From the sequence record OQ708376.1: a stretch of DNA of 64,000 bases; one strand, 5' to 3'. This DNA comes from Escherichia phage vB_EcoM_CRJP21. Both the position numbers and the translations under genes were made by a program. Below, one piece after another: positions 11,609 through 59,986 of the stretch. The notes below the pieces were generated by a model, which saw only the letters and a program-made list of their open reading frames with translations, did not search any database and was not told the DNA's origin. Within the stretch, counting starts at the first letter, position 1, and each line of letters begins with the position of its first letter.

Positions 11609-11637
11609 TTGACATATGAGTGCGTTTTTAATATAAT
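11609..11637 (+). promoter_or_regulatory. Sigma-70-type early promoter embedded in the terminator hairpin
   Basis: TTGACA, 17 bp spacer, TATAAT; the -10 box lies in the loop of the upstream terminator. Confidence 0.6.
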
Positions 11638-32113: not shown

Positions 32114-32118
32114 TAAGA

Positions 32119-32454
<336 letters not shown>

Positions 32455-39951: not shown

Positions 39952-40293
39952 ATGAACTTAAGTTCAACAATTCAGTACTTGAGCAGTAACTTCGAGAAAA
40001 TTATTTCTCGCGGTGGGATGATTGTACACCCAGAAACAGAGGAAATGTACATCATTGGATTTGATAAAAATTCTTATGATCAAGTACTTGTAATTTCCAA
40101 GTTAGAAAGTTATAATGAAGTTGTTCAGTTTTGCTGTACCGAATTTGGTATCTATATTAAAGACGCTGAAACTAATACAATTTCGCATTATTTTTACCAC
40201 ACACTGATGGGTACTAAAGACTTCGGCTTGAAGTTCGATGATTTAGTACAATGTCACTATATGTTTAAAACCTTCCCAGCTAGTGGGCATTAA
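39952..40293 (+). CDS. Hypothetical protein (113 aa)
   Basis: ORF with start overlapping the upstream stop (TAAATG). Confidence 0.5.
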   Translation: MNLSSTIQYLSSNFEKIISRGGMIVHPETEEMYIIGFDKNSYDQVLVISKLESYNEVVQFCCTEFGIYIKDAETNTISHYFYHTLMGTKDFGLKFDDLVQCHYMFKTFPASGH

Positions 40294-40306
40294 GGAGTAT
40301 ATCAAT

Positions 40307-41095
40307 ATGAGCAACATTTTCTTCAAAACTATTTCTTTCAAAAAAGCATCTTACTCCTACGCCTACGTTGATGGTAAAGTGCTTAATATTGTACTGGATG
40401 GTGTTGACGTACCAGTTGAATTTAAAACACATGAAGAAGCAGTTGAAGGTGCTAAAGAATTGAATTCAATTCTTAATGGTGAAGTAAGTCAAAAACAACA
40501 TGTAAAATCTGATTTAGATGTACTTTTGGAAAAAATCAAAACTGGTGAAGTATTAGAAATTTTAGACAACTGTAATGAAAAACTTCGTAATGTAGTTAAT
40601 AATGTTCGTGACCAGATTCAAGAAAAAGCACTAGAGCAAGCATTCAAACATGTATCCAAGAATGCTGAATCTCGTATTGACGGTATGGTTAAAAATCTTG
40701 ATGATGTACTATCTCATCTCTTTACTAAAGAATACGAACAAGAAGTTGAAGAAGAACCAGTAAAAGAAACTAAAAAAGAAAAACGTAGCTTTGGCTCAGG
40801 TGATGATGTGTTTGGTTTTACGAATGTCCGAACAAGTGCAGATGAACCAAAAGAAATTAGTGAGATGCTCATTGGTGACATGACAACTAAGCAGCTTCGT
40901 AATGAAATTGACAAGTTTGTAACTAGTTGTATCAAATCAGAACGTGCACAAAGTATGTTTAAAAGCATTAGTGAGAACTTTGGTCCAGAAGCAACTGAGC
41001 AGGCACTAACTGCATTTAAAGAATTGATTTATAATGTAGCCATTAGCAATCCAGATAAAACACTTGAAGAAGTTCTACGTGACAATTTCAAATAA
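40307..41095 (+). CDS. Hypothetical acidic protein (about 262 aa)
   Basis: Track 40283..41095; start moved to ATG 40307 behind TAAGGAG. Confidence 0.55.
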   Translation: MSNIFFKTISFKKASYSYAYVDGKVLNIVLDGVDVPVEFKTHEEAVEGAKELNSILNGEVSQKQHVKSDLDVLLEKIKTGEVLEILDNCNEKLRNVVNNVRDQIQEKALEQAFKHVSKNAESRIDGMVKNLDDVLSHLFTKEYEQEVEEEPVKETKKEKRSFGSGDDVFGFTNVRTSADEPKEISEMLIGDMTTKQLRNEIDKFVTSCIKSERAQSMFKSISENFGPEATEQALTAFKELIYNVAISNPDKTLEEVLRDNFK

Positions 41096-41110
41096 TTAGA
41101 TAAAATTAAA

Positions 41111-41137
41111 GCCACTACAATGTAGTGGCTTTTTTTA
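41111..41137. terminator. Bidirectional intrinsic terminator between convergent genes
   Basis: GCCACTA-CAATG-TAGTGGC hairpin with T-run on the plus strand and A-run upstream, so it is U-rich on both strands. Confidence 0.65.
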
Positions 41138-42292
41138 TTATGCGTTGTAACCAACTATTACGACTGAGCAGTCAAGCGGTTCTACTACTTTAAGAATTAC
41201 ATTATCATCTTCATCCACTTGTATTTCACTATGAACTACATGATTGTCTGAAGAATATAATTGAACTTGTGGTAGTGCTTTACCATGTTCAGTTACTGGA
41301 ACTGAGATAGAGTACATAGAGTCTTCACCGAGAACCCACTCACTTAAAGTATATTCTTTATGGAAAGGAGTAGTATGCAGTGTTTTTCCGATTATACTCA
41401 AAGAAACAGGTAAATTATCAGTTTGATACACAGTAATATTACCTTCTGCGTCTACAGAAAGATCTACACCAACTTGATATAAGTCACCACTGTATGCTTG
41501 AAGTGCTAAGTACTGTCCACGATCATGAACATCAAATGGAACAACCGCAGAAAATACACCTTCCGAAACAGGTTCAAATTGGGATAGAAGAACTGATGTA
41601 ACAAAATCAATATCCTCACCACTTTCAAGAACATCAAATTCCACCACTTTAGTGTTATAATATGGAGAAGTGAGCGTAGCAGTACCTTTCCCTGATTGTG
41701 TGATAACATCAACTGGAATTGTAAATGCATCATTAACAAATTGGGTAGTAAAGTATTCTGTCCCGTCTGGTAATACGATTGTTATTACCATACCGTTAGT
41801 ATCAATTTCTGAACCAGTGTTGAATAATTTACCACTAATTGAGTCATTACCAACAAATACTGGTGAAATGAGAATATTATCTATATCACGATCTATAATA
41901 CCACATTCAGGTGTATACATATGATACAAGGTTTGTGAACTACCTAAAATTGTTTTATGTAGCATAAATTTATATACAAATCCAGTATCAGTTTCTTGTG
42001 GCTCTTCAGAATATCCACGAACAAAGAAACAATTTTTATTAATTTCACTTAATAGTTGGTCATTAGTTTTATTGTAATTTAATAGATAACCTTTATTATC
42101 TTTAGTTGTTATTTGTACTTTACGATATATTATATTAGTTCTTGGATCAACTAAATCATATAATCTATGGCTTCTTTGGCGATAGATTCTAATATTTTTT
42201 AGTCTAGTTCCATCGTTGAGGATTGCACCATCAACAACATAACCACATTCACCAAACTTATAGCGTCCAGCCGCAGCAATTGACCTTGACAT
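41138..42292 (-). CDS. Hypothetical beta-rich protein (384 aa); the only clear minus-strand gene in the window
   Basis: Long minus-strand ORF not overlapped by any plus-strand gene; convergent with the upstream gene across the bidirectional terminator; candidate divergent promoter on the minus strand around 42300..42345. Confidence 0.6.
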   Translation of the reverse strand: MSRSIAAAGRYKFGECGYVVDGAILNDGTRLKNIRIYRQRSHRLYDLVDPRTNIIYRKVQITTKDNKGYLLNYNKTNDQLLSEINKNCFFVRGYSEEPQETDTGFVYKFMLHKTILGSSQTLYHMYTPECGIIDRDIDNILISPVFVGNDSISGKLFNTGSEIDTNGMVITIVLPDGTEYFTTQFVNDAFTIPVDVITQSGKGTATLTSPYYNTKVVEFDVLESGEDIDFVTSVLLSQFEPVSEGVFSAVVPFDVHDRGQYLALQAYSGDLYQVGVDLSVDAEGNITVYQTDNLPVSLSIIGKTLHTTPFHKEYTLSEWVLGEDSMYSISVPVTEHGKALPQVQLYSSDNHVVHSEIQVDEDDNVILKVVEPLDCSVVIVGYNA

Positions 42293-42352
42293 TTATCCCT
42301 CCATTGGTATAATTATTATAACGTATTTATTATGCATATCCAAAAAATGAGC

Positions 42353-42381
42353 TTGACTGGTGTATGATTTGGTGTTATCAT
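42353..42381 (+). promoter_or_regulatory. Sigma-70-type promoter
   Basis: TTGACT, 17 bp spacer, TATCAT. Confidence 0.5.
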
Positions 42382-42408
42382 GTAGTGAATGAATAATGAG
42401 GTGTTTTT

Positions 42409-42993
42409 ATGAATGTTATTGATAATAGATTAGTACTGAAAAATGGAAAAATGACTGTTAAGTTATATAAAGATGAAGCTGATTCTTTTATGGCAAAAGC
42501 GATTGAAAAATCAGAACGATATAAACTTTTGGCTCCAGCAAGTAAATCGCCATATGGTTTTAATCATGCACATAGTCATTTTGTTGGTATGGTGTGTGAG
42601 CACGCATCTTTAGTACTTTTTAATGAAATTGAAAACAATACTGGTATTAAACTTAATATCGATCCAGCATTCCAAAATGAAGCACGTGACGGTGAATGTG
42701 ATATTAAGGTAAACAACCTTCGTATTGAAGTAAAAGGTATCAAGTATAAATCATGGACTGACTTTGGACCATGTGTTAGTACTCGACAGTTAAAAAATAT
42801 CCAGAAAAAAGCTGACGTAATACTATGGGTATTGTATAATGAGAAAAAACAAGAGTTCACGTTTGAGGGATTCAACTATGTAAAAGATATTAGTTCTATC
42901 CCAGTTATCCTCACTGGTGTACCAGGGCGACCAATGATTGAAAATCACCCAGTACTCGGTATTATGAAACCACTACAGGAGTTACCATTGTGA
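42409..42993 (+). CDS. Hypothetical protein (194 aa), possible PD-(D/E)xK nuclease fold
   Basis: Segment ARDGECDIKVNNLRIEVKG fits a D ... ExK arrangement; weak. Confidence 0.5.
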   Translation: MNVIDNRLVLKNGKMTVKLYKDEADSFMAKAIEKSERYKLLAPASKSPYGFNHAHSHFVGMVCEHASLVLFNEIENNTGIKLNIDPAFQNEARDGECDIKVNNLRIEVKGIKYKSWTDFGPCVSTRQLKNIQKKADVILWVLYNEKKQEFTFEGFNYVKDISSIPVILTGVPGRPMIENHPVLGIMKPLQELPL

Positions 42994-43217
42994 TTACTGC
43001 AACTGTATATCAAGATATCAATGAAGAATTTCATTCTAAAATTGCGTTCTTATCATTTCCTGTACTCCCAGCAGTTGGGTCAACGTTGAATCTTACCATT
43101 TGTGGTTTTGAGAAATATTATAAAGTACTAGATATTGAGTACTGTGCTGATGTATATTCATGTAATAGTGAAATTGCAATTCCAGTATCAATCGATATTA
43201 TTGTAAAAGAGGTTTGA
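42990..43217 (+). CDS. Hypothetical protein (75 aa)
   Basis: ORF overlapping the upstream stop. Confidence 0.45.
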   Translation: MITATVYQDINEEFHSKIAFLSFPVLPAVGSTLNLTICGFEKYYKVLDIEYCADVYSCNSEIAIPVSIDIIVKEV

Positions 43218-43675
43218 TTATGTTTAAGAATTTTATGGTTATCGTAGCAGTACTGTTTGGTACATCATGTTTCATTTCCCCAGTACACGCAGAAGAACAA
43301 CGTCAAACTATTAAAACTATTGGGACTGGTAAAACTCCCCCTAAACGTACTGCTGAAGAATACATGCCTGAAATGCGTGAACGTTATCGTCAGACATACA
43401 GGGAAAAACATGCTAATGATAAACCCATCAAGAAGCATAAATGGGAAGTTGTTAAATCTCCTTCATTTTGTGCTGGATATGCTAAAGTAAAGATTGAGCA
43501 GCACAAAAACCAGTACTATAAAGATATGTATTCCTTCTATGACTCCAGAATTTCTGACACAGATATGATGGCAGGGAAGGTTGATAAAGAAGAATTTCTA
43601 CAAGGCTATGATATGATGGACGATGACAAAATCATGGAATGCGTTGAAGTGTATGAAAAATACAGAGGCTTCTGA
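43214..43675 (+). CDS. Secreted/periplasmic protein (153 aa)
   Basis: Signal-peptide-like N-terminus MIMFKNFMVIVAVLFGTSCFISPVHA. Confidence 0.55.
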   Translation: MIMFKNFMVIVAVLFGTSCFISPVHAEEQRQTIKTIGTGKTPPKRTAEEYMPEMRERYRQTYREKHANDKPIKKHKWEVVKSPSFCAGYAKVKIEQHKNQYYKDMYSFYDSRISDTDMMAGKVDKEEFLQGYDMMDDDKIMECVEVYEKYRGF

Positions 43676-44151
43676 TGTTAACAATAGTGTTGTTGGTTAG
43701 TCCATTTGTGTATTTTGTGCTGTATAATATTTTTAGTAATGCTAATCATTTTAAATATGCACAAACAATTGCAAAGCATGAAGGTTTTTGGAATTTTTTC
43801 CCAGCATTACTATGCTCATATCTATACCATGAACGCTATTTCATTTTTCCTGAATATAAAAATTATGGTTATGATTCTAAAGTAAATGGTATAATTGAGT
43901 ACTGTATAAGAAATTATATTAATAATAATGATAACGTCCAAGTAAGAATAGGAAATGGTAATATATCAAGAATAGTTTTCATACCTGATATACAAGACCC
44001 AATATACTTATATCCATATGATTATAGTATTAGTGTAGGTTGTTCGATACATGGTAGTAAATCTATGTACGATTATTTTATCTTACCACCAACACAAATT
44101 AGATTAATAGAAAAATATTTGAGGGAAAAGTTTGACAACAAAGATTCTTAG
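43675..44151 (+). CDS. Membrane-anchored protein (158 aa)
   Basis: N-terminal TM helix LTIVLLVSPFVYFVLYNIF. Confidence 0.5.
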   Translation: MLTIVLLVSPFVYFVLYNIFSNANHFKYAQTIAKHEGFWNFFPALLCSYLYHERYFIFPEYKNYGYDSKVNGIIEYCIRNYINNNDNVQVRIGNGNISRIVFIPDIQDPIYLYPYDYSISVGCSIHGSKSMYDYFILPPTQIRLIEKYLREKFDNKDS

Positions 44152-47088: not shown

Positions 47089-48054
47089 GTGAAAAAGCTT
47101 GATTTAAATACAATTGCCGAAGAAGTTCTGGATGAATGTTTTTCTAATGAAGAAGTCAACACACTAGAAGCCTTAGATTTCGTTGAAGATAAAGATGAAA
47201 ATGAAGGTAAAGTACAAAGCAGTTTCAAATATAATATTACACTTAAGCGACCACCAAATGTTTCCAATGAAGATCTAATTCGTGATATTCAAGCTGGTAT
47301 CAATGTAAAGAAAAACACTGAACTGTTAGTTCGTTACAATTATGGACTTATTATTGATGTAGCAAGTAAATGTACTTGTTATATCCCATTTGAAGATAAG
47401 ATTTCATATGGTGTTGAGGGGTTCATGAGAGCACTAAAAACCTTTGATCTTAATAAGAATGTGAAGTTCATTACCTATGCTTCTTCTAGTATTTACATGA
47501 CAGTTTATAACGAAAGTTCTGACGCTAACTATATGGTACACTTCCCACGTTATATGAGTGTTCATAAGATCAAAGTAAAAAGATTCTGTCAGGAATATAT
47601 GCGTAAACATGGTGTTCGCCCAACTCCTGAAATAATCTCAGAGGGTACTGGGATTGAGATTCAGCATGTTAATAACTGTTTGTTATTTCAAAGCGAATAC
47701 ACTTCTCTGGATGCACCATTAGACGGTGTTACCGATGGTACACTAGGTGACATTATTCATTCACCTGCTTCTGATTTTAACCTCAATGTTGATAGTATTC
47801 GTGCACCTTTACGTTATGCTATCAATGAACTGACTAACGAATTGAGTACTAAAGAACGTGAGATTATCCAGCGTGTTCATGGTCTAGGTGAATATGAACC
47901 TGAAACGCTTCGTGAGATTGCTGATAATGGTTTTGTTGATGATAATGGAAAATATGTTAAATCCCGTTCATCAATACACCGAAAGTACAGTGAAGCTATG
48001 CAAAAGCTTAAGAAGTTAGTACTTGCAAAAGGGTACGAATACGAAGATTTCTAA
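47089..48054 (+). CDS. Sigma-70-family RNA polymerase sigma factor
   Basis: Region 2-like LLVRYNYGLIIDVASK ... FEDKISYGVEGFMRALKTFD ... FITYASSSI and region 4-like LSTKEREIIQRVHGLGEYEPETLREIA ... SRSSIHRKYSEAMQKLKKL; GTG start behind AGGAG. Confidence 0.75.
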   Translation: MKKLDLNTIAEEVLDECFSNEEVNTLEALDFVEDKDENEGKVQSSFKYNITLKRPPNVSNEDLIRDIQAGINVKKNTELLVRYNYGLIIDVASKCTCYIPFEDKISYGVEGFMRALKTFDLNKNVKFITYASSSIYMTVYNESSDANYMVHFPRYMSVHKIKVKRFCQEYMRKHGVRPTPEIISEGTGIEIQHVNNCLLFQSEYTSLDAPLDGVTDGTLGDIIHSPASDFNLNVDSIRAPLRYAINELTNELSTKEREIIQRVHGLGEYEPETLREIADNGFVDDNGKYVKSRSSIHRKYSEAMQKLKKLVLAKGYEYEDF

Positions 48055-59266: not shown

Positions 59267-59337
59267 TGGGACAACCATTCTTATTATGATATAATGTTTT
59301 ATGTCATTCGATATAAATGACAACGGAACTATAAATA
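59267..59337 (+). promoter_or_regulatory. Tandem early (sigma-70-type) and T4-type late (TATAAATA) promoters
   Basis: TGGGAC, 17 bp spacer, TGATATAATGTTTT; then exact TATAAATA at 59330..59337, about 37 nt before the ATG at 59374. Confidence 0.5.
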
Positions 59338-59948: not shown

Positions 59949-59986
59949 GGTTGACTTCGGTCAGCCTTTTCTTTATACTATAAATA
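59949..59986 (+). terminator. UUCG-tetraloop terminator fused to an early promoter and a T4-type late promoter box
   Basis: GGTTGAC-TTCG-GTCAGCC then TTTTCTTT; embedded TTGACT, 17 bp spacer, TATACT; exact TATAAATA at 59979..59986. Confidence 0.65.

Follow-up and report, generated by a model that had tools for sequence, protein, structure and literature searches.

We analysed a 64,000-nucleotide stretch of the genome of Escherichia phage vB_EcoM_CRJP21 (OQ708376.1; hereafter the window), in which a lone minus-strand gene, the counterpart of gene 155 of phage 121Q and referred to here as gp155, lies within a long block of plus-strand genes served by host-type sigma-70 promoters (Table 1). This gene is very probably a core, anciently conserved late virion gene of the Rak2-like jumbo phages, which encodes an N-terminal module followed by three immunoglobulin (Ig)-like domains and whose inversion is old and fixed in the lineage, not the mark of a recent acquisition. 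An earlier note on this stretch had regarded the gene as a horizontally acquired moron and had named base composition and codon usage, distribution among relatives, and profile searches as the checks on that interpretation.

The phage is a jumbo coliphage of the 121Q/PBECO4/JP4 type (Asteriusvirus). The 4-kb segment at window positions 40000-44000 is 99.5-99.8% identical to approximately 20 Asteriusvirus jumbo coliphages of ∼350 kb, including JP4, 121Q, PBECO4, phAPEC6 and G17, and a second tier of coliphages shows 78-86% identity to the same segment. Window position 40000 corresponds to position 82178 of 121Q, and the neighbours of gene 155 were read from the annotation of this phage (99.5% identical in the segment), whose genes 54-208 cover the whole window. 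Gene 155 is the sole minus-strand feature among these 121Q genes, and every one of the remaining minus-strand open reading frames (ORFs) of at least 100 aa in the window overlaps a plus-strand gene, so that the 64 kb contain no other minus-strand gene, in agreement with the earlier note. The same gene or its homologues appear in other records as phAPEC6 gp077, JP4_CDS0131 and CBB_496.

The product of gp155 matches the PHROGs family phrog_10468, annotated as 'virion structural protein', with an E-value of 7.6e-184 over residues 1-383 of the 384-position profile; the profile search thus assigned a core phage function. This annotation agrees with published proteomic data. phAPEC6 gp077, which is 99.5% identical to gp155, was found in purified virions by electrospray ionization tandem mass spectrometry (42.88 kDa, 10 unique peptides, 37.8% coverage; PMC7247149 Table 1), and the orthologue CBB_496 is marked as a detected structural protein in the supplement of PMC5259590.

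Homologues of gp155 are full-length in all of the 60 phage records matched by tblastn. Their identity falls to 31-40% in Pectobacterium phage CBB, Cronobacter phage GAP32, Serratia phage BF, Yersinia phage fHe-Yen9-04, Salmonella phage Munch, several Erwinia phages, and Xanthomonas phages XbC2 and XaC1. Gene layout was compared in 12 genomes whose annotations were inspected, including CBB, GAP32, BF, fHe-Yen9-04, Munch, XbC2 and XaC1; this set covers at least three named genera (Asteriusvirus, Mimasvirus and Eneladusvirus) as well as unclassified phages, with hosts ranging from Escherichia to Xanthomonas. In all 12 genomes, the homologue is the lone gene on its strand and has the same position and inverted orientation, diverging from a gene of ∼190 aa (the orthologue of gp156, the downstream neighbour in 121Q) and converging on the upstream block. 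The composition of gp155 is also ordinary relative to 85 plus-strand genes, with a GC content of 0.336 (z 0.29) and a codon adaptation index-like value of 0.719 (z 0.48); the GC content at third codon positions is slightly low (z -1.53), and the GC profile is flat. No paralogue of gp155 was detected within the 64-kb window by tblastn.

The earlier note also described the regulation of gp155 as self-contained, and this description is confirmed by the presence of its own promoter and terminator. Promoter classes and timing are assigned throughout this study from motifs and their conservation. The sequence upstream of the gp155 start codon (GCATAATAAATACGTTATAATAATTATACCAATGGAGGGATAAATG) contains a late-type ATAAATA core without a conserved -35 box. 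In each of the 12 genomes, the hexamer TAAATA precedes the start codon of the gp155 homologue by 30-41 nt, mostly in the form [AG]TAAATA[CT], and the rest of the spacer is poorly conserved; Shine-Dalgarno boxes of the AGGAG/GGAG type are retained in all relatives. In CBB, ATAAATA precedes 35 structural genes and was likened by the authors to the T4 late promoter TATAAATA (PMC5259590). The site orthologous to that of gp155, Porf_496 (ATAAATACTTTATA), is included in the CBB late promoter list (PMC5259590 Table S7). The gp155 motif therefore shares with T4 late promoters, which are gp55-dependent, and with the motif predicted in CBB and GAP32 an ATAAATA core at the right distance, again with no conserved -35 box. 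There are differences from T4 as well: in Rak2-like phages this promoter class is predicted from motifs, and in CBB, where CBB_244 is reported to be a gp55-like late sigma factor, the authors found no homologues of gp33 or gp45 (PMC5259590).

The distribution of the motif in the window points in the same direction. Five intergenic, sense-oriented ATAAATA motifs lie 80 nt or less from a gene start, and four of these precede annotated virion genes, namely gp54 (at 1102), gp199 (at 59331), gp201 (at 59980) and gp155 itself. Thus, the motif is found before 4 of 9 virion genes compared with 1 of 139 other genes (Fisher p = 3e-5), when the fifth site, at a tRNA gene, is counted conservatively as non-virion.

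At the other end of the unit, gp155 and the upstream gene gp154 converge, as had been claimed, across a bidirectional intrinsic terminator. The hairpin has a perfect 11-bp stem and scores as a terminator on both strands, with folding energies of -18.2 kcal/mol on the plus strand and -16.6 kcal/mol on the minus strand (z -5.4 and -5.6, respectively, against shuffled sequences), and the record of phage G17 annotates a terminator at this hairpin. At five loci of Mimasvirus and Eneladusvirus relatives, a gene for an S-adenosylmethionine-dependent (tRNA) methyltransferase is located between the orthologues of gp155 and gp154, with no more than 11-15 nt separating it from the structural gene's stop codon. 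Because of this insertion beside the gp155 orthologue, the bidirectional terminator seen in the 121Q group is not universal.

The divergence of gp155 from the gene starting at 42409 was likewise confirmed. The earlier note had further suggested -10/-35-like elements on both strands of the intervening spacer (42293..42408), which is 116 bp long. On the plus strand this proved correct, with two sigma-70 promoters facing gp156, the first of which is a perfect consensus promoter; on the minus strand the only sigma-70-like match upstream of gp155 reaches 10 of 12 positions, and the conserved element is the late-type ATAAATA. Most of the relatives' spacers examined contain one or two TTGAC boxes (CTTGAC/ATTGAC) in the gp156-facing orientation. 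Perfect TTGACA-N16-18-TATAAT promoters occur 10 times in the window (at 11609, 25698, 27558, 28105, 35415, 42286, 44132, 45494, 50438 and 54752), all on the plus strand, compared with 0.13 expected. By these motifs, the window is marked as an early region that is driven by the host polymerase and has many restart points. This agrees with the view of the CBB authors that the syntenic region CBB_390-546 is an early region (PMC5259590). A scan of positions 40200-43300 against Rfam yielded nothing near any gathering score, so the spacer holds no known RNA family.

The AlphaFold2 (AF2) model of gp155, built from 14 sequences, has a mean predicted local distance difference test (pLDDT) score of 80. 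The three Ig-like beta-sandwich domains (residues ∼138-222, 231-314 and 327-383) are modelled with pLDDT values of ∼85-96. In a Foldseek search against PDB, the model matched Ig-like, filamin and adhesin domains, and against viral models (BFVD) the matches were relatives of gp155 and further virion proteins with Ig domains. None of the Pfam Ig families is matched above threshold by the three domains, the best match being NUP210 Ig (E 0.018). The N-terminal module contains a small beta domain (residues 18-93, pLDDT 70-88) followed by a segment (residues 94-134) that is modelled with low confidence but is highly conserved. Because 26 of the 46 invariant columns of the gp155 alignment fall within the first 139 residues, the N-terminus is the conserved part of the protein and the Ig-like part the variable one. 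Invariant cysteines, C16 and C130, flank the module and may form a disulfide or a metal site. The module has no relative in Pfam or PDB by sequence, and no structural relative of it emerged from the Foldseek searches of PDB and BFVD, which returned generic Ig-like or adhesin proteins and relatives of gp155 and leave its fold unclassified.

A profile search of 1.84 billion representative sequences identified 160 relatives of gp155. The first ∼122 positions of gp155 always match residues 1 to ∼120 of these proteins, which are 124-1859 aa long and which, beyond the module, carry strings of Big_2, Invasin_D3, Big_1 or HYDIN-type Ig domains. The first Ig-like domain of gp155 also matches the 10-20 repeats (stalk) of large bacterial adhesins of the pAdhesive_17 type. 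The module by itself constitutes a 125-aa virion protein with 33% identity to the module of gp155 (E 1e-15). This small protein is 100% identical to phAPEC6 gp347, which is among the best-covered proteins of the phAPEC6 virion (75.2% coverage; PMC7247149). Its gene (OR699282.2, 84248-84625) is likewise lone and strand-inverted with its own hairpin terminator, is embedded in an opposite-strand block encoding PhoH, Nudix, Sir2, HslV and dCMP deaminase, and is preceded by CAAATA, not TAAATA.

The predicted architecture of gp155 resembles that of T4 Hoc (highly antigenic outer capsid protein), a protein of 376 aa (384 aa in gp155) with one particle-binding domain and three Ig-like domains that form a flexible surface fibre (architecture from PMC10385173). 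The hoc gene is also transcribed late, from a promoter of the TATAAATA type, as gp155 would be by its motif. However, Hoc binds the capsid by its C-terminal domain, whereas the presumed anchor of gp155 is N-terminal, and PDB searches with phmmer and profiles revealed no sequence homology between the two; gp155 may function in the manner of Hoc, although it falls outside the Hoc family. Hoc is positioned outside the capsid at hexamer centres, and gp155 is likened to it by predicted architecture. A closer parallel in domain order is offered by T5 pb10, which consists of an N-terminal capsid-binding domain and a C-terminal Ig-like domain. Both proteins would thus place the anchor first and the Ig-like part outward, although pb10 has one such domain and gp155 three, with no sequence relationship detected in the PDB searches. 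Ig-like domains are known from the virions of other phages (Fraser et al. 2006, cited by PMC5259590); the three beta-sandwiches of gp155 conform to this pattern, and the first is homologous to the repeats of pAdhesive_17 adhesins of 1000-2500 aa.

By analogy with Hoc and pb10, the most likely role of gp155 is that of a surface decoration protein or adhesin. A 10-Å map of phAPEC6 contains a fibre at the centre of each capsid hexamer as well as tail hairs, assigned to no gene, and gp155 is a candidate for either structure. A wider proposal is that the ∼125-aa module represents a virion-docking domain, not described before, of Rak2-like jumbo phages. On its own (gp347) it would serve as one of the abundant decoration proteins that await assignment and, when fused to one to more than 15 Ig-like domains, it would form the hexamer-centre fibres or the 'hairs' of capsid and tail. 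We put this forward tentatively and regard it as rather unlikely in this full form. If true, gp155 would be a Hoc analogue with reversed domain order, and both paralogues would have been kept as lone inverted late cassettes.

These elements can be combined into a scheme for the locus. Early transcription on the plus strand would halt at the hairpin at 41108-41132 and resume at the promoters at 42286-42313 and 42353-42381, driving gp156 and later genes. gp155 would remain silent until late in infection, when it would be read from the ATAAATA core at 42330-42324 by a polymerase carrying the phage gp55-like factor, and its transcript would end at the same hairpin. In the particle, the conserved N-terminal module would dock gp155, and the variable Ig-like string would project outward as a short flexible decoration or adhesin.

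Several observations speak against parts of this picture and were weighed accordingly. The late motif is also carried by the plus-strand virion genes gp54, gp199 and gp201, which means that late expression does not depend on inversion and that the inversion may be functionless. The upstream gene gp154 also encodes a virion protein (its counterpart phAPEC6 gp078c was found in virions with 4 peptides and 21.4% coverage; PMC7247149 Table 1) and lacks the late motif, and the minus strand near gp155 carries the 10/12 sigma-70-like match mentioned above in addition to ATAAATA. The late timing and promoter class that we infer for gp155 come from sequence motifs; our search of the literature on this phage group found no transcriptome (none for an Asteriusvirus) and no cryo-electron microscopy better than 10 Å. 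Similarly, the place of gp155 in the particle is proposed by analogy, and a capsid, tail or non-surface site may be considered. The N-terminal module is modelled only weakly by AF2 (pLDDT 30-88), and searches of gp155 and its profile against all PDB chains (phmmer and profile) gave only chance matches. Given the late motif of the three plus-strand genes, it is probable that the inversion does not matter for timing, and the orientation may be an ancient, tolerated accident.

The horizontal acquisition proposed in the earlier note, in which gp155 would be a recent moron with an exclusion, defence or host-fitness function, has in its favour that the unit is transcriptionally autonomous and strand-inverted, and it resembles the morons of lambdoid phages in being an autonomous promoter-gene-terminator unit within a differently transcribed block. 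In contrast to such morons, gp155 is not a variable feature among its relatives, being in place in all 12 genomes across distant genera. Its composition is ordinary, its orthologues are virion proteins detected by mass spectrometry, its promoter is by motif that of a late structural gene, and it belongs to jumbo phages that are described as strictly lytic (PMC11895373). Neither gp155 nor gp156 matched any defence model in PADLOC, NCBIfam or Pfam. The moron interpretation fails because conservation in place, ordinary composition and a core phage function, the findings named beforehand as refuting it, were all obtained, and we consider it extremely improbable.

The origin and significance of the orientation are less clear-cut. 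A single acquisition or inversion of the cassette may have taken place in the ancestor shared by the Rak2-like phages, the cassette then being kept because it is self-sufficient and its orientation being a neutral accident without a regulatory role. We regard this as a real possibility, somewhat short of an even chance. It would account for the use of the late motif on the plus strand by gp54, gp199 and gp201, which indicates that the orientation is not required, and for the paralogous module gene (phAPEC6 gp347), whose lone, inverted arrangement with its own hairpin is expected if autonomous late cassettes fit either orientation; the convergent partner, too, varies by genus, as seen from the methyltransferase gene inserted in Mimasvirus and Eneladusvirus. 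However, even at protein identities of 31-40% the orientation is retained, as is the overlap of early with late promoter elements, suggesting at least weak selection. In another proposal, the face-to-face promoters would form a mutually exclusive switch that couples the shut-off of the nuclease (gp156) operon to the onset of gp155 expression. Transcription from the plus-strand promoter at 42286-42313 would start near 42320 and that from the late minus-strand promoter near 42317; the former promoter belongs to the clearly non-random consensus set, and a TTGAC box is retained in most relatives examined, on the strand opposite the late motif and at a distance of 10-35 nt from it. Yet the exact overlap is restricted to 121Q-like and fEgEco12-like phages, the second TTGAC box in CBB and fHe-Yen9-04 lies upstream of the late motif instead of over the start codon, and the -35 box at 42286 is partly dictated by the Met-Ser-Arg codons of gp155. 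A switch suggested in this way by geometry and motifs appears improbable to us. An old virion gene whose inversion is fixed in the lineage is the interpretation that we retain for gp155.

Table 1. Features of the gp155 locus and its neighbours (window coordinates)
Feature	Position	Strand	Basis or remark
Upstream convergent gene, virion protein (121Q gp154, phAPEC6 gp078c)	40283..41095	+	phrog_14991; 121Q annotation
Bidirectional intrinsic terminator hairpin common to gp154 (+) and gp155 (-)	41108..41132	both	Terminator score, folding
Gene for 384-aa virion protein (gp155)	41138..42292	-	ATG-start ORF; phrog_10468; annotations; mass spectrometry
Three tandem Ig-like beta-sandwich domains of gp155	41144..41881	-	AF2, Foldseek
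N-terminal module of gp155 (residues 1 to ∼135), proposed virion-attachment domain	41888..42292	-	Alignment; profile search
Perfect sigma-70 consensus promoter, TTGACA-16-TGgTATAAT, facing gp156	42286..42313	+	-35 box overlaps gp155 start codon, partly outside the spacer
Shine-Dalgarno sequence of gp155, GGAGGG	42297..42302	-	Read directly from the sequence
T4-late-type promoter core of gp155, ATAAATA	42324..42330	-	Begins 38 nt upstream of ATG; TAAATA at -37
Second sigma-70-like promoter, TTGACT-17-TATCAT, with TG extension, closer to gp156	42353..42381	+	Motif match
194-aa PD-(D/E)xK-fold protein (121Q gp156, phrog_16175)	42409..42993	+	Proposed catalytic E64, D98, E107, K109

The neighbouring gp156, a protein of 194 aa, is more conserved than gp155, with 53% identity in XaC1 and 92% in the nearest cluster, and it likewise gives no impression of a recent acquisition. 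The earlier note had pointed to a weak D...ExK nuclease-like arrangement in this protein. The arrangement, D98...E107-V-K109, was confirmed and is stronger than that wording implied: none of the residues E64, D98, E107, K109 and Q127 varies among 45 sequences, and the AF2 model (pLDDT 90.4, predicted template modelling score 0.87) places E64 in the helix 54-78, D98 at the start of the strand 99-101, and E107-x-K109 in the strand 104-112. The core fold is alpha-beta-beta-beta-alpha-beta, as in the PD-(D/E)xK superfamily, and gp156 is thus a PD-(D/E)xK-fold protein. It is predicted to be very probably a nuclease, because the invariant residues occupy the helix and strands where they are expected. 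Nucleases of the Hjc, I-Ssp6803I and D212 types share its core fold and E...D...ExK tetrad, whereas gp156 differs from these in having an additional hairpin plus helix at the N-terminus and a conserved segment, N-H-x-H-S-H, at residues 52-57. This segment directly precedes the catalytic helix and, judging from its residues, may provide an extra set of metal ligands.

No curated family in Pfam, NCBIfam or PADLOC matched gp156 above threshold. The score against NOV_C was 14.5 bits (cut-off, 22.1), and 3 of the 45 members of the family match NOV_C. Searches of gp156 and its profile against all PDB chains yielded only chance sequence matches, and matches to dihydrodipicolinate synthase were dismissed because they cover only a short C-terminal stretch. 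Neither a mobile homing endonuclease nor a Holliday-junction resolvase is a likely identity for gp156. Homing would predict a sporadic distribution, but gp156 occupies an unchanging syntenic position across all genomes examined, at 53-92% identity, and a role as a resolvase was ranked low since a homologue of endonuclease VII is already present elsewhere in the clade. Its apparent early expression from sigma-70 promoters suggests, as a guess, a role in host takeover or DNA metabolism. A functional link between gp155 and gp156 was not adopted, as the two genes are connected only by adjacency in a region that is syntenic throughout.

Some additional features of the window concern its transcription. 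The fifth ATAAATA motif (32118-32124, plus strand) is located 17 nt upstream of the gene for tRNA-Gly (32141-32213), the first gene of the tRNA cluster, a position that hints at possible late transcription of the phage tRNAs. On the plus strand, only three copies of the full T4 late consensus TATAAATA are present (1101-1108, 59330-59337 and 59979-59986), 11-36 nt upstream of the first in-frame start codons of the gp54, gp199 and gp201 ORFs, and the octamer is otherwise depleted in the window, with 5 copies found versus 12.6 expected. The window also encodes, at 47089-48054 on the plus strand, a phage sigma-70-family factor with regions 2, 3 and 4, which is RpoD/RpoS-like and falls below all equivalog cut-offs. 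This factor, encoded within the early region, is not the counterpart of the gp55-like late sigma factor that was reported in CBB.

In conclusion, the gp155 locus is ordinary and largely already known, and it contains no moron, defence or exclusion cassette. What is mildly new is confined to the fold assigned to gp156 and the family formed by the modular N-terminal domain. The locus does carry a caution for the interpretation of jumbo phage genomes, where strand inversion together with an own promoter and terminator is no sign of recent acquisition; such genomes have their late structural genes dispersed among early regions in the form of autonomous cassettes. gp156, a universally conserved and apparently early-expressed PD-(D/E)xK protein, is a second, modest lead. 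The N-terminal module, which occurs in virion proteins of 125 to ∼1860 aa, could help to assign the capsid and tail fibres of 121Q, phAPEC6 and CBB to their genes.

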